From a virus (Duplodnaviria; Heunggongvirae; Uroviricota; Caudoviricetes): a stretch of 44,339 nucleotides of DNA. Both the position numbers and the translations under genes were made by a program. The notes below the pieces were generated by a model that was given only the letters and a program-made list of their open reading frames with translations, did not search any database and had not been told where the DNA came from. Of the stretch, positions 1-44,339 are shown piece after piece (within the stretch, counting starts at the first letter, position 1; every line of letters starts with the position of its first letter). The DNA lies in IMG/VR virus record IMGVR_UViG_2923286960_000001; one strand, 5' to 3'.

Positions 1-1164
1 TTACGCCTTCTTTATATCCTCCATAATTCCACAGTGGGACATATTTGGGACATTATCACCAAAAATGTCGTCTATTTTCCTTGCATGCTCTGTCAAATGA
101 TTAGGCGCAAGGTGAGCATACCTACGAACCATTTCTATGGACTCCCATCCGCCCATTTCCTGAAGCACAGATAATGGGACGCCTGACTGGATCAGCCAGC
201 TTGCCCAGGTGTGTCTGAGGTCATGGAAACGGAAATCTTCAATTCCTGCACGACGACAAGCTGATAGCCATGATGTCTTGCTGTCGATGCGCATCTTCCT
301 GACCGCAGGCGTTGATGTTCCATCTGCTCGCTTAGCCGCCTTGGTATGTACAAACACCCATTTGTGATGCTTGCCTATTTGATCACGCAACACTTTACAG
401 GCGGTATCGTTCAGCGCCACACCAATGGCGCGGTTTGATTTGCTCTCTTCTGGATTCACCCAGGCAACTCGTCGCTGCATGTCGATTTGTTGCCATTCCA
501 GATTTATGATGTTCGACTTTCTCAGACCAGTTGCCAGCGCAAACTTGACGACAGATTTCAGTGGTTCGGGGCACTCATCAATAAGGCGTTTTGCTTCCTC
601 CTTTTCCAGCCATCTGACTCGCTTGTTTCTGACCGCTGGTATCTTGATGACAGGCGCTTTTTCCAGCCACTTCCAGTCGCGTTCTGCAGCACGGAGAATG
701 GCCTTTATCATGGCAAGATGCTTTGCCTTTGTCTGAGTTGATACTGGCTTTGGTTCATAAACAGGCGGTTCTTTACCTTTCCTGATGGCGGCCTGAACTT
801 TCTGTTTCCATATTTCTTTCGTCTTTCTGTTATGCATTCTGCTTACAGCAGAGTAAATCTTTGCCTCCGAGATATCTTTAAGCCTTATACCCTCAAAATG
901 TTCAAGCCAGAACTCAATCCGGCTTTTATCTGAATCGAGAGATTTTTTATCAGCTTTTTCCTCAAGCCATCTTAGGCAGGCCTCTTCAAAAGTGACATCA
1001 GGTAAATCCCCTAGCTTTTCTACTCGCCAGAGTTCTGCTTTTCGCTTGTCGTGCAACTCCTGAGCTTGCCGCTTGTCCTTTGTGCCAAGAGATTCCTTAA
1101 TTCGTTTCCCGCCCGGGAGCGAATACGAGGCATACCATATTTCATTTCTGCGGAAGAGTGACAT
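1..1164 (-). CDS. int: tyrosine-type site-specific integrase
   Basis: 387-aa ORF; C-terminal catalytic signature HDLRHT ... RYAHL (HxxR / Y); sits next to an excisionase ORF at the prophage end. Stop codon is at window position 1-3. Confidence 0.9.
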
Positions 1165-5453: not shown

Positions 5454-6530
5454 TTACTTTGTAAGTTCTAGAACTCGTTGAGCCAGCCCTTTAAATTGTT
5501 CGTTAAAGGCGTCTCTGCTTGATTTCATTGTATTTAAGGCATGCCCAAATTGCCCTGAATCGCGAATTTGCTGATCACTGATGGAGAAAACAGGTGTCGC
5601 TAGTTGTTGGCTTATTGCGATTAATGAGTTGAAATCGGAAATATGCGCAAGATCATAGGCTGATAAATCTCCACTGACTGTTGTTTTGTTAATTGCATGT
5701 TGCACTTTATCTCGTGGAATTATGCAGGTAATTTTTTCTAGATTTGGCACTAAGATCGAATCAACAGCATCACGGATAGCTGCCATCCATTTTTCGAAAG
5801 ATTTTACAGGTGCTCCTTTACGCGGCCTGTATCTCTGCTGAATCATACCTAGAAACTGCGGTGCATTTTTAATTGATTGTGAAGAGTTACCATCATTATT
5901 TTCTTTAAATAATGCTAATTCTTTGTGCCAGCGAGGTATATTTTTTGAGAGAGAGCGAATTGCTTGCCAGCAAAAAAAGTCTGGAGCTACAGGTACGATA
6001 AAATAGTCACTTGACATGAGAACTACTTCATTTAAACCTCCAACATTAGGGCTGAGATCATAAAGAATGTAATCAATATTATTCTTCATGGCGATTAGCT
6101 GTAATATTTTTGGCAGGTTCCCTGGTATATTTCTTGTAGCAGGAATACCAGCAGCAATTTTTAGAGAAACACTTATCTGTGAATCTAAGTCCGAAACATC
6201 TAAATGTCCGGGAAGAAGCAGAAGGTTTTCATGCAGTGTAGGGTGTAATTTTCCCGTTTCTTTTTCAAGGTATGCTTCAGGTTGTCCGCCATTAATCAAA
6301 TATTCTACAATAGGTCCAAGAGTTAAGTTATCTCTGCTAGAATAAAAAGAATCTAAACCCTCATCAATCTTTTCATAGCCAAGAACCATTCCTGTTAGAT
6401 TACATTGCGAATCAAGGTCAACCATCAATACTTTCTTGCCTTCATCCGCAAGTGCCCATCCAAGATTGAAGGTTGTTGTGGTTTTACTTACCCCACCTTT
6501 ATGATTAAAAAAACAAATTGATTTTGTCAT
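5454..6530 (-). CDS. ParA/MinD-family P-loop ATPase with about 100-aa C-terminal extension (orphan, no ParB)
   Basis: Deviant Walker A KGGVSKTT at residues 11-18, A' motif MVDLDSQ, Walker B-like DYILYDLSPN; AAGGA SD; low GC; lies downstream of cI on the same strand. Confidence 0.85.
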   Translation of the reverse strand: MTKSICFFNHKGGVSKTTTTFNLGWALADEGKKVLMVDLDSQCNLTGMVLGYEKIDEGLDSFYSSRDNLTLGPIVEYLINGGQPEAYLEKETGKLHPTLHENLLLLPGHLDVSDLDSQISVSLKIAAGIPATRNIPGNLPKILQLIAMKNNIDYILYDLSPNVGGLNEVVLMSSDYFIVPVAPDFFCWQAIRSLSKNIPRWHKELALFKENNDGNSSQSIKNAPQFLGMIQQRYRPRKGAPVKSFEKWMAAIRDAVDSILVPNLEKITCIIPRDKVQHAINKTTVSGDLSAYDLAHISDFNSLIAISQQLATPVFSISDQQIRDSGQFGHALNTMKSSRDAFNEQFKGLAQRVLELTK

Positions 6531-15631: not shown

Positions 15632-16089
15632 ACAGAGTAACCGCGATTATCTCCGCTCTGGTTATCTGCATCATCGTCTGCCTGTCATGGGCTGTTAATC
15701 ATTACCGTGATAACGCCATTACCTACAAAGCCCAGCGCGACAAAAATGCCAGAGAACTGAAGCTGGCGAACGCGGCAATTACTGACATGCAGATGCGTCA
15801 GCGTGATGTTGCTGCGCTCGATGCAAAATACACGAAGGAGTTAGCTGATGCGAAAGCTGAAAATGATGCTCTGCGTGATGATGTTGCCGCTGGTCGTCGT
15901 CGGTTGCACATCAAAGCAGTCTGTCAGTCAGTGCGTGAAGCCACCACCGCCTCCGGCGTGGATAATGCAGCCTCCCCCCGACTGGCAGACACCGCTGAAC
16001 GGGATTATTTCACCCTCAGAGAGAGGCTGATCACTATGCAAAAACAACTGGAAGGAACCCAGAAGTATATTAATGAGCAGTGCAGATAG
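15628..16089 (+). CDS. Rz: i-spanin Rz
   Basis: ATG overlaps the endolysin stop (ATGA); N-terminal TM segment then coiled-coil periplasmic domain. Confidence 0.8.
15848..16030 (+). CDS. Rz1: o-spanin Rz1, embedded in Rz in the +1 frame
   Basis: 60-aa ORF with lipobox LVVVGC and a proline run (PPPPPAW). Confidence 0.8.
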
Positions 16090-16120
16090 AGCTGCCCATA
16101 TCGATGGGCAACTCATGCAA

Positions 16121-16414
16121 TTATTGTGAGCAATACACACGCGCTTCCAGCGGAGTATAAATGCCTAAAGTAATAAAACCGAGAAATCCATTTACGAATG
16201 TTTGCTGGGTTTCTGTTTTAACAACATTTTCTGCGCCGCCACAAATTTTGGCTGCATCAACAGTTTTCTCCTGTCCAATTCCCGAAACGAAGAAATGATG
16301 GGTGATGGTTTCCTTTGGTGTTACTGCTGTCGGTTTGTTTCCAACAGTAAACGTCTGTTGAGCACATCCTGTAATAAGCATTGCCAGAGCGGCAGAAAAC
16401 AACATTTTTTTCAT
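16121..16414 (-). CDS. bor: Bor-family outer-membrane lipoprotein
   Basis: Start at MKKMLFSAALAMLITGC (lipobox); 97 aa. Confidence 0.85.
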   Translation of the reverse strand: MKKMLFSAALAMLITGCAQQTFTVGNKPTAVTPKETITHHFFVSGIGQEKTVDAAKICGGAENVVKTETQQTFVNGFLGFITLGIYTPLEARVYCSQ

Positions 16415-16774
16415 CTTATTATCCTGCATTGTTAAAAACGGCAGAATCCTATGTGACAACAATTAAACGATAGTTAAATGGATTGATGAAAATTAAAACT
16501 ATATAGGTGGATGCTCAGCCTATTGGAGGAGGGGGGGCACTCAGAATCCTGTGGAATGAAATAAACCGCTCTATCTGTCCATTACCCTTTTAGCTGCGCT
16601 GTATCGTCGCCGTATTCCCGCATTAACCATGACCGTAGCCCGACGGGGAATTCCTTCTGCGTGAGTGTACGGGAATAATCAAAAACGATGCACACCGGGT
16701 TTTACTGTGCTGACAGACGCAGGGTTACCCTCATAGTCGCTTTTCCGGTGCGATGGTGGAAGAAACCGGGATGT

Positions 16775-16969
16775 TCATCCATCATCACTTTGGATTGATG
16801 TATATGCTCTCTTTTCTGACGTTAGTCTCCGACGGCAGGCTTCAATGACCCAGGCTGAGAAATTCCCAGACCCTTTTTGCTCAAGAGCGATGTTAATTTG
16901 TTCAATCATTTGGTTAGGAAAGCGGATGTTGCGGGTTGTTGTTCTGCGGGTTCTGTTCTTCGTTGACAT
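16775..16969 (-). CDS. small basic protein (64 aa), possibly ribbon-helix-helix DNA-binding
   Basis: ORF only; basic N-terminus then IRFPNQMIEQINIALEQK pattern. Confidence 0.35.
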   Translation of the reverse strand: MSTKNRTRRTTTRNIRFPNQMIEQINIALEQKGSGNFSAWVIEACRRRLTSEKRAYTSIQSDDG

Positions 16970-17167
16970 GAGGTTGCCCCGTATTCAGTGTCGCTGATTT
17001 GTATTGTCTGAAGTTGTTTTTACGTTAAGTTGATGCAGATCAATTAATACGATACCTGCGTCATAATTGATTATTTGACGTGGTTTGATGGCGTAGATGC
17101 ACGTTGTGACATGTAGATGATAATTATTATCATTTTGCGGGTCCTTTCCGGCGATCCGACAGGTTAC

Positions 17168-17179
17168 GGGGCGGCGACC
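17168..17179. other. cosN cohesive-end sequence (GGGCGGCGACCT); cosQ/cosB flank it from about 17100 to 17350
   Basis: Exact lambda cohesive-end 12-mer, followed by lambda-like cosB up to the Nu1 start. Confidence 0.8.
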
Positions 17180-17357
17180 TCGCGGGTTTTCGCTATTTAT
17201 GAAAAATTTCCGGTTTAAGGCGTATCCGTTCTTCTTCGTCATAACTTAATGTTTTTATTTAAAATACCCTCTGAAAAGAAAGGAAACGACAGGTGCTGAA
17301 AGCGAGCTTTTTGGCCTCTGTCGTTTCCTTTCTCTGTTTTTGTCCGTGGAATGAACA

Positions 17358-17877
17358 ATGGAAGTCAACAAAAAGCAGCTGGCTGACATTTTCGGTGCGA
17401 GTATCCGTACCATCCAGAACTGGCAGGAACAGGGAATGCCCGTTCTGCGAGGCGGTGGCAAGGGTAATGAGGTGCTTTATGACTCTGCCGCCGTCATAAA
17501 ATGGTATGCCGAAAGGGATGCTGAAATTGAGAACGAAAAGCTGCGCCGGGAGGTTGAAGAACTGCGGCAGGCCAGCGAGGCAGATCTCCAGCCAGGAACT
17601 ATTGAGTACGAACGCCATCGACTTACGCGTGCGCAGGCCGACGCACAGGAACTGAAGAATGCCAGAGACTCCGCTGAAGTGGTGGAAACCGCATTCTGTA
17701 CTTTCGTGCTGTCGCGGATCGCAGGTGAAATTGCCAGTATTCTCGACGGGATCCCCCTGTCGGTGCAGCGGCGTTTTCCGGAACTGGAAAACCGACATGT
17801 TGATTTCCTGAAACGGGATATCATCAAAGCCATGAACAAAGCAGCCGCGCTGGATGAACTGATACCGGGGTTGCTGA

Positions 17878-17903
<26 letters not shown>
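17358..17903 (+). CDS. nu1: terminase small subunit Nu1
   Basis: 181-aa translation matches lambda Nu1 essentially throughout, from memory. Confidence 0.95.
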
Positions 17904-21585
<3,682 letters not shown>

Positions 21586-23267: not shown

Positions 23268-23289
23268 GGCCGCCTGTGCGGCTTTTTTT
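23268..23289 (+). terminator. terminator-like hairpin between D and E
   Basis: GCCGC-ctgt-GCGGC followed by TTTTTTT. Confidence 0.4.
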
Positions 23290-26196: not shown

Positions 26197-26204
26197 CCCT
26201 TATG
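26197..26204. repeat. target-site duplication CCCTTATG, left copy
   Basis: Identical 8-mer immediately outside both IS ends. Confidence 0.85.
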
Positions 26205-26257
26205 GTAACCGGCTCATTTAGACCGTCTGGTCTGTTTCCTCCGGCTCTACAAAAATA

Positions 26258-26935
26258 ATGTCCATCATTTTTAATGGACACTATCGTATGAAACACCGGA
26301 CCTGGATCACTGAAGCTTTACGTCTTCACTTTGAAGAACATTTACCCCGGGTTGTGGCCGGGCGTCGCCTGGGTGTACCAAAATCAACAGTTTGTAGTAT
26401 GTTCGTGCGCTTTCGGAGAGCTGGCCTTTCGTGGCCTTTGCCCGCAGGCATGTCGGAGCAGGAACTTGATGCCTGCCTTTACGGACAATTTTCCACGGTA
26501 CCAGTCGTACGTCCTGAAAGCACCGTTATATCCGAAGCCCCCGTGGTAAAAAAACGTCCCCGGCGGCCCAACTTCCCTTATGAGTTTAAAATCGCCTTAG
26601 TGGAGCAGTCACTGCAGCCCGGAGCCTGTGTGGCGCAGATCGCCCGGGAAAACGGAATCAACGATAACCTGCTCTTCAACTGGCGCCATCAATACCGGAA
26701 AGGTGGCCTGCTGCCTTCCGGAAAAAATATGCCGGCACTGCTTCCCGTGACGTTAACGCCGGAGCCGGATAATAAAATCCCGGCCCCCGCACAGGAACCA
26801 GAGCAGATAAATACACCGTCCGACAGTCTGTGTTGTGAGCTGGTTCTGCCGGCCGGAACTCTCAGGCTTAAAGGTAAACTGACGCCGGCGTTATTACAGA
26901 CACTTATCCGCGAAATAAAAGGGAGCAGCCACTGA
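26258..26935 (+). CDS. IS66-family accessory protein (orf1/TnpA-like); start uncertain
   Basis: First ORF inside the IS; stop overlaps the orf2 start (TGATG); alternative start at 26288. Confidence 0.6.
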   Translation: MSIIFNGHYRMKHRTWITEALRLHFEEHLPRVVAGRRLGVPKSTVCSMFVRFRRAGLSWPLPAGMSEQELDACLYGQFSTVPVVRPESTVISEAPVVKKRPRRPNFPYEFKIALVEQSLQPGACVAQIARENGINDNLLFNWRHQYRKGGLLPSGKNMPALLPVTLTPEPDNKIPAPAQEPEQINTPSDSLCCELVLPAGTLRLKGKLTPALLQTLIREIKGSSH

Positions 26936-27282
26936 TGATATCTCTCCCTGCAGGTTCGCGTATCTGGCTGGTTGCAGGTATCACCGATATGCGAAATGGC
27001 TTTAACGGCCTGGCATCAAAAGTTCAGAACGTCCTGAAGGATGACCCGTTCTCCGGACACCTGTTCATCTTCCGCGGACGCCGGGGTGACCAGATAAAAG
27101 TGTTGTGGGCTGACAGTGACGGACTGTGCCTCTTCACCAAACGCCTGGAGCGGGGCCGCTTCGTCTGGCCAGTCACCCGTGACGGCAAGGTGCACCTTAC
27201 TCCGGCTCAGTTATCCATGCTTCTTGAAGGTATCAACTGGAAGCACCCGAAACGAACGGAACGCGCTGGAATCCGCATATAA
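26935..27282 (+). CDS. IS66-family Orf2 (TnpB-like) protein
   Basis: 115 aa, MISLPAGSRIWLVAGITDMRNGFNGLA, recalled IS66 Orf2 signature. Confidence 0.85.
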   Translation: MISLPAGSRIWLVAGITDMRNGFNGLASKVQNVLKDDPFSGHLFIFRGRRGDQIKVLWADSDGLCLFTKRLERGRFVWPVTRDGKVHLTPAQLSMLLEGINWKHPKRTERAGIRI

Positions 27283-27301
27283 CCCGTTGTAAAGTGAGGA
27301 T

Positions 27302-28873
27302 ATGGACACCTCACTTGCTCATGAGAACGCCCGCCTGCGGGCACTGTTGCAGACGCAACAGGACACCATCCGCCAGATGGCTGAATACAACCGTCTGCTC
27401 TCACAGCGGGTGGCGGCTTATGCTTCCGAAATCAACCGGCTGAAGGCGCTGGTTGCGAAACTGCAACGTATGCAGTTCGGTAAAAGCTCAGAAAAACTTC
27501 GTGCAAAAACCGAACGGCAGATACAGGAAGCACAGGAGCGAATCAGCGCACTTCAGGAAGAAATGGCGGAAACGCTGGGTGAGCAATATGACCCGGTACT
27601 GCCATCCGCCCTGCGCCAGTCTTCAGCCCGTAAACCGTTACCGGCCTCACTTCCCCGTGAAACCCGGGTTATCCGGCCGGAAGAGGAATGCTGTCCTGCC
27701 TGTGGTGGTGAACTCAGTTCTCTGGGATGTGATGTGTCAGAGCAACTGGAGCTTATCAGCAGCGCCTTTAAGGTTATCGAAACACAACGTCCGAAACAGG
27801 CCTGTTGCCGGTGCGACCATATCGTGCAGGCACCAGTACCTTCAAAACCCATTGCACGCAGTTATGCCGGAGCGGGGCTTCTGGCCCATGTTGTCACCGG
27901 GAAATATGCAGACCATCTGCCGTTATACCGCCAGTCAGAAATATACCGTCGTCAGGGAGTGGAGCTGAGCCGTGCCACACTGGGGCGCTGGACAGGTGCT
28001 GTTGCTGAACTGCTGGAGCCGCTGTATGACGTCCTGCGCCAGTATGTGCTGATGCCCGGTAAAGTCCATGCTGATGATATCCCCGTCCCGGTCCAGGAGC
28101 CGGGCAGCGGTAAAACCCGGACAGCCCGGCTGTGGGTCTACGTCCGTGATGACCGTAACGCCGGTTCACAGATGCCCCCGGCGGTCTGGTTCGCGTACAG
28201 TCCGGACCGGAAAGGTATCCATCCACAAAATCACCTGGCCGGTTACAGCGGTGTGCTTCAGGCCGATGCTTACGGTGGTTACCGGGCGTTATACGAATCC
28301 GGCAGAATAACGGAAGCCGCGTGTATGGCTCATGCCCGGAGAAAAATCCACGATGTGCATGCAAGAGCGCCCACCTACATCACCACGGAAGCCCTGCAGC
28401 GTATCGGTGAACTGTATGCCATCGAGGCAGAGGTCCGGGGCTGTTCAGCAGAACAGCGTCTGGCGGCAAGAAAAGCCAGAGCCGCGCCACTGATGCAGTC
28501 ACTGTATGACTGGATACAGCAACAGATGAAAACACTGTCGCGTCACTCAGATACGGCAAAAGCGTTCGCATACCTGCTGAAACAGTGGGATGCACTGAAC
28601 GTGTACTGCAGTAATGGCTGGGTGGAAATCGACAACAACATCGCAGAGAACGCCTTACGGGGAGTGGCCGTAGGCCGGAAAAACTGGATGTTCGCGGGTT
28701 CCGACAGCGGTGGTGAACATGCGGCGGTGTTGTACTCGCTGATCGGCACATGCCGTCTGAACAATGTGGAGCCAGAAAAGTGGCTGCGTTACGTCATTGA
28801 ACATATCCAGGACTGGCCGGCAAACCGGGTACGCGATCTGTTGCCCTGGAAAGTTGATCTGAGCTCTCAGTAA
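27302..28873 (+). CDS. IS66-family transposase (TnpC)
   Basis: 523 aa; N-terminal coiled coil, CxxC ... CxxC zinc-finger-like pairs, large catalytic core. Confidence 0.85.
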
Positions 28874-28903
28874 ATATCAATACGGTTCTGACGAGTCGCT
28901 TAC

Positions 28904-28911
28904 CCCTTATG
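28904..28911. repeat. target-site duplication CCCTTATG, right copy
   Basis: Identical 8-mer immediately outside both IS ends. Confidence 0.85.
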
Positions 28912-29585: not shown

Positions 29586-30008
29586 ATGTTCCTGAAAACA
29601 GAATCATTTGAACATAACGGCGTGACCGTCACGCTTTCTGAACTGTCAGCCCTGCAGCGTATTGAGCATCTTGCCTGGTTGAAAGAGCAGGAAAAAAAGG
29701 CTGAATCCAGCGGCAACCTGCAGGTGTCTGTAGAGGATCTTATCAGAGGCGGGGCGTTTCTGGTGGCGATGTCTCTGTGGCATAACCATCCGCAGAAGAC
29801 AAAGCTGCCGTCCATGAATGAAGCCATTACGCAGATTGAGCAGGAAGTGCTTACCACCTGGCCCACGGAGGCAATTGCTCAGGCTGAAAACGTGGTGTTA
29901 CGTCTGTCCGGAATGTCTGAGTTTGTGGTGAATAATGCCCCTGAACAGGCAGATGACGCCGGGCCTGCAGAGCCTGTTTCTGCGGGAAAGTGTTCGACGG
30001 TGAGCTGA
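29586..30008 (+). CDS. G: tail assembly chaperone G
   Basis: 140 aa from MFLKTESFEHNGVTVTLSEL. Confidence 0.9.
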   Translation: MFLKTESFEHNGVTVTLSELSALQRIEHLAWLKEQEKKAESSGNLQVSVEDLIRGGAFLVAMSLWHNHPQKTKLPSMNEAITQIEQEVLTTWPTEAIAQAENVVLRLSGMSEFVVNNAPEQADDAGPAEPVSAGKCSTVS

Positions 30009-30424
30009 GTTTTGCCCTGAAACTGGCGCGTGAGATGGGGCGACCCGACTGGCGCGCCATGCTTGCCGGGATGTCATCCACGGAGTATGCCGACTGGCAC
30101 CGCTTTTACAGTACCCATTATTTTCATGATGTTCTGCTGGATATGCACTTTTCCGGGCTGACGTACACCGTACTCAGCCTGTTTTTCAGCGATCCGGATA
30201 TGCATCCGCTGGATTTCAGTCTGCTGAACCGGTGTGAGGCTGACGAAGAGCCTGAAGATGATGTGCTGATGCAGAAAGCGGCAGGGCTTGCCGGAGGCGT
30301 CCGCTTTGACCCGGACGGGAATGAAGTTATCCCCGCTTCCCCGGATGTGACGGGCATGACGGAGGATGACGTAATGCTGATGACAGTATCAGAAGGGATC
30401 GCAGGAGGAGTCCGGTATGGCTGA
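29586..30424 (+). CDS. T: tail assembly chaperone GT fusion made by -1 programmed frameshift
   Basis: T-frame ORF 29990-30424 has no independent start and overlaps the G 3' end in the -1 frame; slippery heptamer GGGAAAG at 29984-29990. Confidence 0.8.
29984..29990 (+). promoter_or_regulatory. -1 programmed ribosomal frameshift slippery site (G GGA AAG)
   Basis: Heptamer sits in the G/T overlap, as in lambda. Confidence 0.75.
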
Positions 30425-32979
30425 ACCGGTAGGCGATCTGGTCGTTGATTTAAGTCTGGATGCGGCCAGATTTGACGAGCAGATGGCCAGAGTCAGGCGT
30501 CATTTTTCCGGTACGGAAAGTGATGCGAAAAAAACAGCGGCAGTCGTTGAACAGTCAATGAACCGGCAGGCGCTGGCTGCACAGAAAGCGGGGATTTCCG
30601 TCGGGCAGTATAAAGCTGCCATGCGTATGCTGCCTGCGCAGTTCACTGACGTGGCCACGCAGCTTGCAGGGGGGGCAGAATCCGTGGCTCATCCTGCTGC
30701 AACAGGGTGGTCAGGTGAAGGACTCCTTCGGCGGAATGATCCCCATGTTCAGGGGGCTTGCCGGTGCGATCACCCTGCCGATGGTCGGGGCCACCTCGCT
30801 GGCGGTGGCGACCGGTGCGCTGGCGTATGCCTGGTATCAGGGCAACTCAACCCTGTCCGATTTCAACAAAACGCTGGTCCTTTCCGGCAATCAGTCGGGT
30901 CTGACGGCAGATCGCATGCTGGTCCTGTCCAGAGCCGGGCAGGCGGCAGGGCTGACGTTTAACCAGACCAGCGAGTCACTCAGCGCACTGGTTAAGGCGG
31001 GAGTAAGCGGTGAGGCTCAGATTGCGTCCATCAGCCAGAGTGTGGCGCGTTTCTCCTCTGCATCCGGTGTGGAGGTGGACAGGGTCGCTGAAGCCTTCGG
31101 GAAGCTGACCACAGACCCGACGTCGGGGTTGACGGCGATGGCACGCCAGTTCCATAACGTGACGGCGGAGCAGATTGCGTATGTTGCTCAGTTGCAGCGT
31201 TCCGGCGATGAAGCCGGGGCATTGCAGGCGGCGAACGAGGCCGCGACGAAAGGGTTTGATGACCAGACCCGCCGCCTGAAAGAGAACATGGGTACGCTGG
31301 AGACCTGGGCAGACAGGACCGCGCGGGCATTCAAATCCATGTGGGATGCGGTGCTGGATATTGGTCGTCCTGATACCGCGCAGGAGATGCTGATTAAGGC
31401 AGAGGCTGCGTTTAAGAAAGCGGACGACATCTGGAGTCTGCGCAAGGATGATTATTTTGTTAACGATGAAGCGCGGGCGCGTTACTGGGATGATCGTGAA
31501 AAGGCCCGTCTTGCGCTTGAAGCCGCGAGAAAGAAGGCTGAACAGCAGAGTCAACAGGACACAAATGCGCAGCAGCAGAGCGATACTGAAGCGTCACGGC
31601 TGAAATATACCGAAGAGGCGCAGAAGGCTTACGAACGGCTGCAGACGCCGCTGGAGAAATATACCGCCCGTCAGGAAGAACTGAACAAGGCACTGAAGGA
31701 CGGGAAAATTCTGCAGGCAGATTACAACACGCTGATGGCGGCGGCGAAAAAGGACTATGAAGCGACGCTGAAAAAGCCGAAACAGTCCGGCGTGAAGGTG
31801 TCTGCGGGCGATCGTCAGGAAGACAGTGCTCATGCTGCCCTGCTGACGCTTCAGGCTGAACTCCGGACGCTGGAGAAGTATGCCGGAGCAAATGAGAAAA
31901 TCAGCCAGCAGCGCCGGGATTTGTGGAAGGCGGAGAGTCAGTTCGCGGTACTGGAGGAGGCGGCGCAACGTCGCCAGCTGTCTGCACAGGAGAAATCCCT
32001 GCTGGCGCATAAAGATGAGACGCTGGAGTACAAACGCCAGCTGGCTGCACTTGGCGACAAGGTTACGTATCAGGAGCGCCTGAACGCGCTGGCGCAGCAG
32101 GCGGATAAATTCGCACAGCAGCAACGGGCAAAACGGACCGCCATTGATGCGAAAAGCCGGGGGCTGACTGACCGGCAGGCAGCGCGGGAAGCCACAGAAC
32201 AGCGCCTGAAGGAACAGTATGGCGATAATCCTCTGGCGCTGAATAACGTCATGTCAGAGCAGAAAAAGACCTGGGCGGCTGAAGACCAGCTTCGCGGGAG
32301 CTGGATGGCAGGCCTGAAGTCCGGCTGGAGTGAGTGGGAAGAGAGCGCCACGGACAGTATGTCGCAGGTTAAAAGTGCAGCCGCGCAGACCTTTGATGGT
32401 ATTGCGCAGAATATGGCGGCGATGCTGACCGGCAGTGAGCAGAACTGGCGCAGCTTCACCCGTTCCGTGCTGTCCATGATGACAGAAATTCTGCTTAAGC
32501 AGGCAATGGTGGGGATTGTCGGGAGTATCGGCAGCGCCATTGGCGGGGCTGTTGGTGGCGGCGCATCCGCGTCAGGCGGTACAGCCATTCAGGCCGCTGC
32601 GGCGAAATTCCATTTTGCAACCGGAGGATTTACGGGAACCGGCGGCAAATATGAGCCAGCGGGGATTGTTCACCGTGGTGAATTTGTCTTCACAAAGGAG
32701 GCAACCAGCCGGATTGGCGTGGGGAATCTTTACCGGCTGATGCGCGGCTATGCCACCGGCGGTTATGTCGGTACACCGGGCAGCATGGCAGACAGCCGGT
32801 CGCAGGCGTCCGGGACGTTTGAGCAGAATAACCATGTGGTGATTAACAACGACGGCACGAACGGGCAGATAGGTCCGGCTGCTCTGAAGGCAGTGTATGA
32901 CATGGCCCGCAAGGGTGCCCGTGATGAAATCCAGGCACAGATGCGCGATGGTGGTCTGTTCTCCGGAGGTGGACGATGA
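30417..32979 (+). pseudogene. H: tape measure protein H, split by a +1 frameshift in a G7 run (30669-30675)
   Basis: First ORF (30417-30962) matches H for about 82 aa then diverges; second ORF (30664-32979) continues H (QNPWLILLQQGGQVKD...) in the +1 frame; removing one G joins them. Confidence 0.85.
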
Positions 32980-38863: not shown

Positions 38864-39463
38864 ATGCGTAAACTTTATGCCGCCATTTTGTCCGCAGCCA
38901 TTTGTCTGGCCGTATCCGGTGCGCCTGCATGGGCATCTGAACATCAGTTCACGCTGAGCGCGGGGTATCTTCATGCCCGGACCAACGTTCCCGGCAGTGA
39001 TGATCTGAACGGGATTAACGTGAAATACCGTTATGAGTTTACGGATACGCTGGGGCTGGTGACGTCATTCAGCTATGCAGGAGACAAGAATCGCCAGCTG
39101 ACCCGTTACAGCGATACCCGCTGGCATGAAGATTCCGTGCGTAACCGCTGGTTCAGCGTGATGGCGGGGCCGTCTGTGCGCGTGAATGAATGGTTCAGCG
39201 CGTATGCGATGGCGGGTATGGCTTACAGCCGTGTTTCGACTTTTTCCGGGGATTACCTTCGCGTAACTGACAACAAGGGGAAAACGCACGATGTGCTGAC
39301 CGGAAGTGATGACGGTCGCCACAGCAACACGTCTCTGGCGTGGGGGGCTGGCGTGCAGTTTAACCCGACCGAATCCGTGGCCATTGATATTGCTTATGAA
39401 GGCTCCGGCAGTGGTGACTGGCGCACTGACGGTTTCATCGTGGGTGTCGGTTATAAATTCTGA
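38864..39463 (+). CDS. lom: Lom/Ail-family outer-membrane beta-barrel protein
   Basis: 199 aa, signal peptide, C-terminal GVGYKF. Confidence 0.9.
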   Translation: MRKLYAAILSAAICLAVSGAPAWASEHQFTLSAGYLHARTNVPGSDDLNGINVKYRYEFTDTLGLVTSFSYAGDKNRQLTRYSDTRWHEDSVRNRWFSVMAGPSVRVNEWFSAYAMAGMAYSRVSTFSGDYLRVTDNKGKTHDVLTGSDDGRHSNTSLAWGAGVQFNPTESVAIDIAYEGSGSGDWRTDGFIVGVGYKF

Positions 39464-39490
39464 TTAGCCAGGTAACACAGTGTTATGACA

Positions 39491-39517
39491 GCCCGCCGGT
39501 TCAGGTGGGCTTTTTTG
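39491..39517 (+). terminator. intrinsic terminator after lom
   Basis: GC-rich hairpin GCCCGCCGG-ttcag-GTGGGC then TTTTTTG. Confidence 0.5.
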
Positions 39518-39527
39518 TGGGGGGAAT

Positions 39528-41924
39528 ATGGCAGTAAAGATTTCAGGTGTACTGAAAGACGGCACAGGAAAACCGGTACAGAACTGCTCAATCCAGCTGA
39601 AAGCAAAACGTAACAGCACCACGGTTGTGGTAAACACGGTGGCCTCAGAAAATCCGGATGAAGCCGGGCGTTACAGTATGGATGTTGAGTATGGCCAGTA
39701 CAGCGTTATCCTGCTGGTTGAAGGTTTTCCGCCTTCACATGCCGGGACCATCACCGTGTATGAAGATTCTAAGCCGGGGACGCTGAATGATTTTCTCGGT
39801 GCCATGACGGAAGATGATGTCATGCCGGAGGCATTGCGTCGTTTTGAGGAAATGGTGGAAGAAGCGGCACGCAACGCTGAAGCCGCCTCTCAGAGCGCAG
39901 CGGCGGCAAAGAAATCCGAAACTGCAGCGGCATCATCGAAGAACGCGGCGAAAACCTCAGAAACGAATGCAGCTAATAGTGCACAGGCGGCAGCGACCTC
40001 AAAGACTGCATCGGCAAACTCCGCGACAGCAGCCAAAAAATCAGAAACCAACGCGAAAAATAGCGAGACAGCCGCAAAGACGAGCGAAACCAACGCAAAG
40101 TCCAGCCAGACGGCAGCGAAAACCAGCGAAACGAATGCCAAAGCCAGTGAAACTGCGGCAAAAAACAGCCAGGTTGCAGCAGCCCAAAGCGAGAGCGCGG
40201 CAGCCGGTTCTGCGACTTCAGCAGCTGGATCAGCAACTGCTGCGGCTAACAGCCAGAAAGCTGCGAAGACGAGTGAAACTAACGCAAAGTCCAGCCAGAC
40301 GGCAGCGAAGACCAGCGAAACGAATGCCAAAGCCAGCGAAACTGCGGCGAAAAACAGTCAGGATGCAGCAGCCCAAAGCGAGAGTGCTGCAGCTGGTTCT
40401 GCAAGCGCGGCGGCTGCTTCTGCCACTGCATCAGCCAACAGTCAAAAAGCAGCAAAAACCAGTGAAACCAATGCAAAGACAAGCGAGACTGCAGCGGCGA
40501 ACTCGGCGAAAGCATCGGCAGCAAGCCAGACAGCAGCTAAAGCAAGTGAAGACGCAGCCAGAGAGTATGCAAGTCAGGCAGCAGAGCCGTATAAATATGT
40601 CTTACAGCCACTGCCTGATGTGTGGATACCGTTTAACGATTCACTGGATATGATTACGGGCTTTTCGCCGTCATATAAAAAAATTGTTATTGGTGATGAT
40701 GAAATAACGATGCCTGGCGACAAGGTTGTTAAGTTTAAACGCGCATCAACTGCCACATATATCAATAAATCAGGCGTATTTAGTGTTGCTAAAATTGATG
40801 AGCCACGATTTGAAAAAGAAGGTTTATTGATTGAAGGACAGCGCACTAACTATTTTGTTAAATCCAATACTCCCGCTGAATGGACGAGTACCAGCAATAT
40901 CGATAAAACTAATAATGGTGTTGATGAATTTGGTTTTTCATATGCCAAAATGCGAACAAAAGATAATATGACAGGACAATCATCTGCACTTAGTCTGCAT
41001 ACATGCAGTGCATCCCGGGGGATTGATGTTAGTGGCGATAATAAGTATTGCACTGTTTCATGCAGGGTTAAAGCTCCTGATGGTCTTCGTTGTCGTTTGC
41101 GTTTTGAAAAATACGATGGGTCGGTTTATACATTTTTAGGAGATGCTTATTTAACTTTCGGAACTCTGATAATAGAAAAAACTGGCGGGGCAGCCAATAG
41201 AATAGCAGCTACTGCAACTAAAGATCCGGTTACAGGGTGGATTTTCTATGAGGCAACTATAGAAGCTGTTGAAGGTGAAACCTTAATTGGCGCAATGATT
41301 CAGTATGCGCCGAAAAAAGGTGGTATAACTGAAGCGGGAGATTATATTTACCTTGCAACACCACAATTTGAAAACGGCGGATGTGCTTCATCTTTTGTTA
41401 TTACGACAACTGCACCCGCAACCCGCTCCAGTGATATGGTGACGATCCCAACTGAAAATAATATCTATAATAGACCGCTTACGTGTCTTGTCGAGGTTAA
41501 TAGAAATTGGGGCGATATTCCTCCTAATGTAGCACCGCGTATTTTTGATTTTTCTGGTGTGCCACCTATTGAGTCAATTACATACGCTTTTAACACAACT
41601 GAGAAATATTACGGTCAGCTTTATATGCAAACTTATAAAGCGTCGACAAGTACTTACGTTTCTAGTGTGTTTGCTGGTCGAACTGATGTTCGAAAATTCA
41701 TTGGTGGTTTTAATATTTATTCTGATGGTACTAAACGAGTAGTTTCTAACGGTGAGGCTACTAAAACTATGAAAACGGAGTGGACGGGCGTAAAAACACG
41801 GACCTTTATTCGAATTGGAGGTCAAGCCACATCGGGAACTCGTCATCTATTCGGCCATTTGAGAAATCTTCGTCTCTGGCATAAAGAATTAACTGATGCG
41901 CAAATGGGGGAGAGTATTAAATGA
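39528..41924 (+). CDS. stf: side tail fibre protein with internal tandem repeats and a divergent low-GC C-terminal domain
   Basis: N-terminal about 120 aa lambda Stf-like; central Ala/Ser/Thr-rich shaft with KTSETNAK repeats; C-terminal about 440 aa encoded by AT-rich DNA. Confidence 0.85.
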   Translation: MAVKISGVLKDGTGKPVQNCSIQLKAKRNSTTVVVNTVASENPDEAGRYSMDVEYGQYSVILLVEGFPPSHAGTITVYEDSKPGTLNDFLGAMTEDDVMPEALRRFEEMVEEAARNAEAASQSAAAAKKSETAAASSKNAAKTSETNAANSAQAAATSKTASANSATAAKKSETNAKNSETAAKTSETNAKSSQTAAKTSETNAKASETAAKNSQVAAAQSESAAAGSATSAAGSATAAANSQKAAKTSETNAKSSQTAAKTSETNAKASETAAKNSQDAAAQSESAAAGSASAAAASATASANSQKAAKTSETNAKTSETAAANSAKASAASQTAAKASEDAAREYASQAAEPYKYVLQPLPDVWIPFNDSLDMITGFSPSYKKIVIGDDEITMPGDKVVKFKRASTATYINKSGVFSVAKIDEPRFEKEGLLIEGQRTNYFVKSNTPAEWTSTSNIDKTNNGVDEFGFSYAKMRTKDNMTGQSSALSLHTCSASRGIDVSGDNKYCTVSCRVKAPDGLRCRLRFEKYDGSVYTFLGDAYLTFGTLIIEKTGGAANRIAATATKDPVTGWIFYEATIEAVEGETLIGAMIQYAPKKGGITEAGDYIYLATPQFENGGCASSFVITTTAPATRSSDMVTIPTENNIYNRPLTCLVEVNRNWGDIPPNVAPRIFDFSGVPPIESITYAFNTTEKYYGQLYMQTYKASTSTYVSSVFAGRTDVRKFIGGFNIYSDGTKRVVSNGEATKTMKTEWTGVKTRTFIRIGGQATSGTRHLFGHLRNLRLWHKELTDAQMGESIK
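40077..40454 (+). repeat. 2 x 189-bp in-frame tandem repeat within stf
   Basis: Unit at 40077 repeats at 40266 with few substitutions; nested 27-bp sub-repeats. Confidence 0.75.
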
Positions 41925-42202
41925 AAGATTTAACACTCAAATTTGCAGACAGGGCCGACTTTTCGGCCTTTATGGAGAGCATTGGCTATTATGATGACGA
42001 GTCGATGCAGGATGATATTCTTATTGACGTGATAGGTAATGTGTACAAAGAAACCGGAGAACTTACTGAAGATGGCGAGCCGGTATGTGTTAAGGAGGAC
42101 GGATATTTTGTAAATGTGCGCATCATTAATGATTCGCAAATATCGTCATTATTCGATGAACACGCGGTTGCTGTTGAGCATCAACTCCGTAGCTGGATGT
42201 GA
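41921..42202 (+). CDS. hypothetical acidic protein (93 aa) coupled to stf
   Basis: ATG overlaps the stf stop (ATGA); AT-rich. Confidence 0.5.
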   Translation: MKDLTLKFADRADFSAFMESIGYYDDESMQDDILIDVIGNVYKETGELTEDGEPVCVKEDGYFVNVRIINDSQISSLFDEHAVAVEHQLRSWM

Positions 42203-43220: not shown

Positions 43221-43230
43221 AAAAAGGTGA

Positions 43231-43359
43231 GCTGTATATGCAACGGAGGAAGAAACCCCGTTGCTGGAAGCCTGGAAAAAGTATCGGGTGTTGCTGAACC
43301 GTGTTGATACATCAACTGCACCTGATATTGAGTGGCCTACGAACCCTGTCAGGGAGTAA
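43231..43359 (+). pseudogene. tail fibre assembly gene (tfa) 3' remnant
   Basis: In-frame [39 protein letters not shown] matches the lambda Tfa C-terminus; in-frame stop immediately upstream, no start. Confidence 0.7.
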
Positions 43360-43372
43360 TCATTGGGATTAT

Positions 43373-43422
43373 GCCGCAGCACGTCTTAAGCAAGAACGTG
43401 CTGCGGTTGGATGCTATTTTTT
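43373..43422 (+). terminator. hairpin terminator between the tfa remnant and the convergent methyltransferase
   Basis: GCCGCAGCACG-n13-CGTGCTGCGG followed by a T-run. Confidence 0.4.
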
Positions 43423-44082
43423 CCCTGAAGCGGAAAACATTACTACAGTACCTTGAACCTTGGTTTTAACATTCTCGAAATGCTCTGAGAGTATATGTGT
43501 TAAGCCTTCTTCGGAATCTTTTGTGTTTGAAAAGATGCCTTTCTGATTGTAAATGCGCATCAGTTTTTGACCGAAGCTATTGTGCACAACTCCATCGCCA
43601 AGAATTGTGGCTCCGTATAGAGTTCCATCGTCAGTTAAGGCCTGCGCCGCATTGCGTATTACACAGCTTTTTGTAGATATATTTCCAGGCAGGCAGTGAA
43701 GAAGGTAAAACATGGAAATGGAATCAAATTGACCATGTAACGCCGCGGGATAAGGTTCAAAAACATCATGGCTAATTTTATGTTTAATTTTTGATTCCCC
43801 AGCCCTTGTAGATGCCGCGTTCAGGCTAGCTTCGTTCAAATCCATTAAAGATATCAGACTACTCTCAGGTACGTGAGTAAGGTAAAACCCAGTTCCAACA
43901 CCAATATCCAGATGGTTGTTACCTAAATGTTCCAGAAAGTGTGGAAGAAGGTGTTCCTTTGTAGGACATCCCCATGCAAGCCGATTTGATACTCCCAAAA
44001 CCCACCAGTCATAAAGCTTTAGGGTAAGTGGTGTGTAAATTTTAGCCCCATCATCTGTGTTTTTTTTCATTAATTTCACCAT
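43414..44082 (-). CDS. class I SAM-dependent methyltransferase
   Basis: 222 aa with motif I LDIGVGTGFY and downstream acidic residue; low GC; opposite strand to the tail genes. Confidence 0.75.
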   Translation of the reverse strand: MVKLMKKNTDDGAKIYTPLTLKLYDWWVLGVSNRLAWGCPTKEHLLPHFLEHLGNNHLDIGVGTGFYLTHVPESSLISLMDLNEASLNAASTRAGESKIKHKISHDVFEPYPAALHGQFDSISMFYLLHCLPGNISTKSCVIRNAAQALTDDGTLYGATILGDGVVHNSFGQKLMRIYNQKGIFSNTKDSEEGLTHILSEHFENVKTKVQGTVVMFSASGKK

Positions 44083-44138
44083 GTTATAGTTTTATTTGTG
44101 AATTAAATCAATTATGGCGATGAATTACAAGGGGTTAA

Positions 44139-44339
44139 ATGCTGCCGCAGCATAGCGATATTGAAATAGCCTGGTATGCTTCGATACAGCAGGAGCCGAA
44201 TGGCTGGAAGACCGTCACCACACAGTTCTACATCCAGGAATTCAGTGAGTATATTGCGCCACTGCAGGATGCTGGGAAATCGCAACGGAGGAAGAAAGAT
44301 CGTTGCTGGAGGCATGGAATAAATATCGGGTATTGTTGA
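44139..44339 (+). CDS. tfa-like gene, truncated by the window end and apparently frameshifted
   Basis: ...EYIAPLQDAGKS in one frame and EIATEEERSLLEAWNKYRVLL in the next correspond to lambda Tfa ...[30 protein letters not shown]...; about 8 nt missing around 44270. Confidence 0.45.
   Translation: MLPQHSDIEIAWYASIQQEPNGWKTVTTQFYIQEFSEYIAPLQDAGKSQRRKKDRCWRHGINIGYC

Follow-up and report, generated by a model that had tools for sequence, protein, structure and literature searches.

The tape measure gene H of the prophage studied here is interrupted by one extra G in a G7 homopolymer. Very probably this is an inherited +1 frameshift that arose by slippage in the G run, in a prophage that is unable to make virions. 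The window (the whole stretch of 44,339 nucleotides that was analysed) is a full-length lambda-like prophage of about 44 kb, with intD beside a tRNA-Arg gene (argU) on its left and with ompT, envY, ybcH and nfrA past its right end. The genes are arranged in the order nohD (Nu1), A, W, B, C, D, E, FI, FII, Z, U, V, G, T, H, followed by M, L, K, I, J, lom and the tail fibre gene, which is the order of lambda. With its tRNA-Arg and intD, its lambdoid gene order and its lesions in A, V and H (Table 1), the element has the features of a defective lambdoid prophage. The lysis and regulatory genes are intact, as are the cargo genes for an ompC-like porin, iss/bor and lom.

Table 1. Coordinates of the features of the window that are discussed in the text
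Feature	Position	Strand	Remark
Terminase large-subunit gene A, pseudogene	17878..19804	+	+1 G at 19118-19123
IS66-family element (ISCro1-like) in major tail gene V	26205..28903	+	8-bp target-site duplication
G-T slippery heptamer G GGA AAG, programmed -1 frameshift, intact	29984..29990	+	seen in the sequence
H 5' segment, codons 1-86 in original frame	30417..30674	+	ATG at 30417
ORF translatable from the H start, 181 aa	30417..30962	+	86 native and 95 out-of-frame residues
G7 homopolymer, +1 G insertion site	30669..30675	+	ancestral G6 in closest intact relatives, GGC GGG in lambda
H 3' segment, 767 codons and native stop	30676..32979	+	+1 frame relative to the ATG

The H locus lies between the tail chaperone genes G/T and the tail-tip genes M/L (gpG, T, H, M, L), and its start codon overlaps the end of gene T. 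The first ORF opens with MAEPVGDLVVDLSLDAARFDEQ and corresponds to native H up to ...TQLAGG (codon 86). At this point the window reads cagcttgcaGGGGGGGcagaa (30660-30680; cagcttgcaGGGGGGGcagaatcc when extended to 30683), and the lambda H sequence is lost after codon 86, being replaced by out-of-frame codons up to a stop at 30962. The rest of H is found in the +1 frame, as GGQNPWLILLQQGG... / GGQNPWLILLQQGGQVKDSFGG..., up to the native stop, and the whole of this 3' segment contains no additional stops or indels. The ancestral G6, as seen in the closest intact relatives, corresponds to the codons GGG GGG for Gly85 and Gly86 of H. The window's H is not a single reading frame of about 853 codons, since it is broken after codon 86. 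The Pfam domain TMP_2 (PF06791) is split at the shift, with profile positions 2-36 in the first ORF (41.5 bits) and 32-207 in the second (184.3 bits), and Tape_meas_lam_C (PF09718) is present in the 3' segment with 72.8 bits, all above the gathering thresholds. When one G is removed in silico, an uninterrupted H of 853 aa is obtained, without any other defect. The claim of an earlier note on this sequence, made from the letters alone, that the extra G breaks the H frame is therefore confirmed by the ORFs, by the split TMP_2 domain and by the one-G deletion, and the gene is best described as a predicted pseudogene of the lambda gpH family and not as a functional member. The run itself is unremarkable, and what counts is that the frame of a conserved gene is broken. 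Two G7 runs are present in the window against 5.2 +/- 3.0 expected from shuffles, and the idea that a G7 run is a statistical oddity was rejected because about five are expected by chance.

The restored H is closely similar to lambda gpH (J02459, 10542-13103), which also has 853 aa, differs from it at 17 residues and harbors both TMP_2 and Tape_meas_lam_C. Lambda and the window also share the gene order V, G, T, H, M, L, K, I, J. However, lambda has GGCGGG at the site, without a long run and with an intact frame, whereas the window's H is a pseudogene. An in-frame G7 (CAG GGG GGG CAG) occurs in lambda about 30 nt further downstream, where the window has GGTGGT (30705-30711). This in-frame G7 indicates that long G runs are tolerated in a functional H, and that their position moves between lineages by synonymous changes.

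An intact sister prophage is found in strain WP3-W18-ESBL-08 (AP022003), at the same chromosomal site and flanked by the same ompT, envY, ybcH and nfrA genes, with 97-99% identity over about 33 kb. Its A, V and H genes are all intact, and its H (2562 bp, G6 allele) differs from that of the window by three substitutions and a one-base indel. Once restored, the window's H differs from this intact H by two residues (three nucleotides).

We searched the whole H gene in 5,426 complete E. coli genomes (20,395 records), of which 4,110 records matched. An H of 2,563 bp is present in four records only, and the relatives closer than 99% that come next in this search all have 2,562 bp. The four records are those of strain B-2207 (CP117959) and three assemblies of NCTC 86 (LT601384, LR217818 and OZ489144), the latter being independent but from one strain, with two that could come from the same platform. 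Likewise, a 91-nt query centred on the G7 run is matched exactly by these four alone among the 20,395 records. In all of them the PGAP annotation gives H as "phage tail tape measure protein, frameshifted", lists A as "frameshifted" too and shows V divided by an IS66, so that the H lesion is already known from RefSeq annotation in the same lineage and is nothing new in kind. NCTC 86 is Escherich's original E. coli strain, isolated in 1885 (PMC5382810). The window differs from it by six alleles shared with B-2207 and by two private SNPs, which could be errors. The window, B-2207 and NCTC 86 represent at least three genotypes as defined by consistent SNPs, all with the same lesions. The inactivation predates the split of NCTC 86 (1885) from the sub-lineage of B-2207 and the window.

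The exact G6 context, identical over its 90 nt, was identified in 78 records. H is in frame with G6 in WP3-W18-ESBL-08, the one G6 genome inspected, and an annotated tape-measure gene covers the G6 context in each of the 10 matches listed. The closest intact prophages have GCA GGG GGG CAG (G6) at the site, and lambda, PhiR42_1 and 2G7b have GCA GGC GGG CAA. The sequence at the site, the loss of frame, the ancestral states, and the fact that the break is reproducible and confined to one lineage are all direct observations.

The earlier note had favoured prophage decay over sequencing error, and this preference is supported, as H has G7 and A has G6 in the window and in all four public assemblies. 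A homopolymer error of sequencing or assembly in a gene that truly has G6 and is intact appears very unlikely. Homopolymer miscalls do occur on long-read platforms, and the assemblies disagree in the region, at the poly-G of 16531 (G7, G8 or G10), in a T8 run (44060) and at several places within the IS. However, these are the only variable runs among the same-lineage assemblies, and G7 is found at the H site in the window and in each of the four. The error profiles differ between assemblies elsewhere but not at the H site, where an artefact would be expected to be irreproducible across assemblies or platforms. This holds even for B-2207, which shows a distinct profile of errors at Dcm sites and homopolymers in the IS, yet agrees with the others at H and A. 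LT601384 was assembled from PacBio data and then treated with Illumina data "to correct remaining indel errors" (PMC5382810), and this indel-polished sequence still has G7. The hypothesis of a sequencing error was therefore rejected by base-by-base comparison with the four assemblies, together with the procedure described in the genome paper on NCTC 86.

As an error-rate control, which the earlier note had asked for, we aligned 152 homopolymer runs of at least five bases to the WP3-W18-ESBL-08 sister prophage. Only four differ in length, namely those at 16531 (intergenic G), 19118 (in A), 23283 (intergenic T) and 30669 (in H), and the H and A runs are invariant within the lineage. For G/C runs of at least five bases, 30 of 33 have the same length as in the intact relative, with no systematic +1 G bias. 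A systematic poly-G error can be considered as excluded as far as a comparison of assemblies permits. The intergenic T run, located between the head genes D and E (23283-23289), is T7 in the window and T6 in the intact sister prophage.

Homopolymeric G tracts are a classic substrate of slipped-strand phase variation, and assemblies and strains indeed differ in the length of the nearby intergenic poly-G at 16531. The G tract of H could therefore be imagined as a phase-variable on/off switch (contingency locus) for tail production, but this reading is extremely unlikely. The length of a contingency tract should differ among close isolates or assemblies, whereas G7 is constant in all five same-lineage sequences, which cover three genotypes and include one isolate of 1885. 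Moreover, seven bases is short for such a tract, 78 genomes have its G6 precursor within the same 90 nt of sequence, H is neither a surface nor a restriction-modification determinant, and the prophage has two more lesions that are irreversible or independent. Phase variation was rejected for the H tract, which shows no length variation, the 16531 tract serving as a positive control.

The latter tract (16531-16537) is intergenic and lies about 117 nt upstream of the start of iss/bor (16414, minus strand). It is G7 in the window and LT601384, G8 in OZ489144 and B-2207, and G10 in LR217818, while WP3-W18-ESBL-08 has G9. Across a spread sample of E. coli genomes, the 91-nt query of this tract was matched over 90 to 93 nt. 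A simple promoter scan found no promoter hexamers on this poly-G. The tract is either hard to sequence or truly hypermutable, upstream of a serum-resistance gene.

The G7 run could also act as a recoding site, at which the ribosome slips by +1 (tRNA-Gly on GGG GGG G) or the RNA polymerase loses a G, restoring the frame at a frequency sufficient for a functional tape measure protein. A tRNA-Gly could indeed re-pair perfectly in the +1 frame on the G run, the downstream H frame is fully open and undamaged, and the neighbouring G and T genes use a programmed frameshift. Nevertheless, the shift is not conserved among homologs, being present in one clonal lineage (4 records) against G6 in 78 records and GGCGGG in many more, and the flanks are those of the intact relatives except for one synonymous SNP, suggesting that no stimulatory signal has evolved. 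The features of a prfB-type +1 site, a slow A-site codon and a spaced upstream SD-like stimulator, are both absent at the H site. The run is followed by GCA, an ordinary codon that is neither a stop nor rare, and the sole SD-like sequence, that of the G run, overlaps the slip site instead of lying 3 nt upstream. Insertions of one G in G runs are classical non-leaky frameshifts that need suppressor tRNAs of the sufD type, which also counts against recoding. Finally, a restored H would serve nothing because A and V are also inactivated. Recoding was rejected on the grounds that the flanks are as in intact relatives and the shift is unconserved, and we give it hardly any credence.

The programmed frameshift of the neighbouring genes lies in the same operon, 680 bp upstream of the H lesion, and its heptamer GGGAAAG (29984-29990), which we take to be the lambda G/GT programmed -1 site, is present in the window. 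This shift is a -1 event and is kept in all relatives, whereas that of H is a +1 event found in one lineage and without recoding signals. The G-T site is unrelated to the H lesion.

A further scenario, to which we assign very little probability, is that G7 still allows a low level of full-length H, either by spontaneous +1 slippage of tRNA-Gly or via reversible slippage between G7 and G6 in a subpopulation, and has constituted a dormant and revertible reservoir of a tail gene since before 1885. If this were true, the triple-lesion prophage could act as donor of a functional H, or recombination with other lambdoid prophages of the same host could rescue it.

Two other morphogenesis genes of the prophage are disrupted. 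The run of gene A at 19118-19123 is G6 in the window and G5 in relatives, and the insertion splits the GpA_nuclease domain; a product of 641 aa is restored when one G is deleted. The exact 91-nt context of this lesion occurs only in the four records that also have the G7 of H. The earlier note described H and A as having the same, identical pattern. This is correct as to the kind of lesion, one additional G in a G run in both cases, but the two are not identical, as A went from G5 to G6 and H from G6 to G7. The IS that the earlier note mentions in V is a genuine insertion of the IS66 family. Its tnpA, tnpB and transposase ORFs are intact, its terminal repeats begin with GTAA, and its target duplication is the 8-bp direct repeat CCCTTATG, present at 26197-26204 and 28904-28911. 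The interruption of V can be regarded as a real transposition because this duplication flanks the element. In B-2207 (CP117959), about 10 single-base indels are present inside the IS66 copy (15848-18446, equivalent to 26258-28873 of the window), mostly at CCWGG (Dcm) motifs and homopolymers, and PGAP calls the IS genes frameshifted. These indels look like uncorrected long-read errors in a repeated element, not biology.

The inherited slippage frameshift in H, which we prefer, may be explained by a history in two steps. In an ancestor, the GGCGGG of lambda-type phages would have become G6 by a synonymous substitution of GGC by GGG, and a single replication slip in the common ancestor of the NCTC 86, B-2207 and window lineage would then have extended G6 to G7. 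A silent substitution followed by one slip is the most economical history, because G6 is found in 78 records and G7 in one lineage, and because the indel rate rises with run length, as indicated by the exponential climb of E. coli indel rates with homopolymer length (PMC8510543). We infer slippage as the mutational mechanism, as well as loss of function and neutral decay. The product made from the H start, 86 native followed by 95 nonsense residues, would not provide a tape measure, and neither initiation of the tail tube nor tail assembly would be expected. Moreover, M-L-K-I-J would probably be subject to a polar effect, as translation would end 2 kb short of the H/M junction. Together, the lesions in A (one additional G), V (IS66) and H would prevent the production of virions, since the terminase, the major tail protein and the tape measure would all be missing. 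The inactivation is recent in evolutionary terms because each pseudogene is without a second defect. H is a young pseudogene in a decaying prophage, in the course of ordinary prophage decay. We rejected selection for the inactivation of morphogenesis genes, because the module accounts for about half of the element and three hits in it are not significant.

Homopolymer frameshifts and IS insertions in the morphogenesis genes of lambdoid prophages are textbook observations. Decay by frameshifts and IS insertions in such genes is likewise seen in DLP12, the cryptic prophage of E. coli K-12, and in defective lambdoid prophages of O157 Sakai. The integration site of the window is that of DLP12 (argU tRNA-Arg, intD), and the cargo and lysis genes (essD, rrrD, rzpD, nohD, ompC-like porin and iss/bor) are also shared. 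However, compared with DLP12 and the Sakai prophages, the window represents a much earlier stage of decay, with its full length of about 44 kb and only three disabling lesions.

Annotations should retain H as a frameshifted pseudogene rather than "correct" it as an assembly error. The lesions would also imply that the 44-kb prophage of the historic NCTC 86 lineage makes no virions, A, V and H all being dead. The two-step history would provide an example of a synonymous change predisposing a gene to inactivation, as the silent GGC to GGG substitution made a slippage-prone G6. Beyond annotation hygiene, the importance of these observations is little.

Some minor features were observed at the ends of the prophage and elsewhere. 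The stop codon of the intD-type integrase gene (1-1164, minus strand) forms the very start of the window, with the tRNA-Arg gene just outside. Partial tail-fibre assembly and dinI remnants, together with a SAM-dependent methyltransferase gene, lie at the right end (about 43230-44339), and the right-arm remnants suggest older recombination scars. The window has an intact ORF of 358 aa (5454-6530, minus strand), which RefSeq describes as ParA-like; LT601384 has two annotated genes in its place, owing to a T run (window 5941-5946) that is one T shorter in that assembly. Finally, the chromosomal genes nfrA, coding for the phage N4 receptor (outside the window, at about 39177-42148 in the sequences from these assemblies), and sfmD are annotated as frameshifted in all NCTC 86 and B-2207 assemblies, and the nfrA of WP3-W18-ESBL-08 has an internal stop instead of a frameshift.
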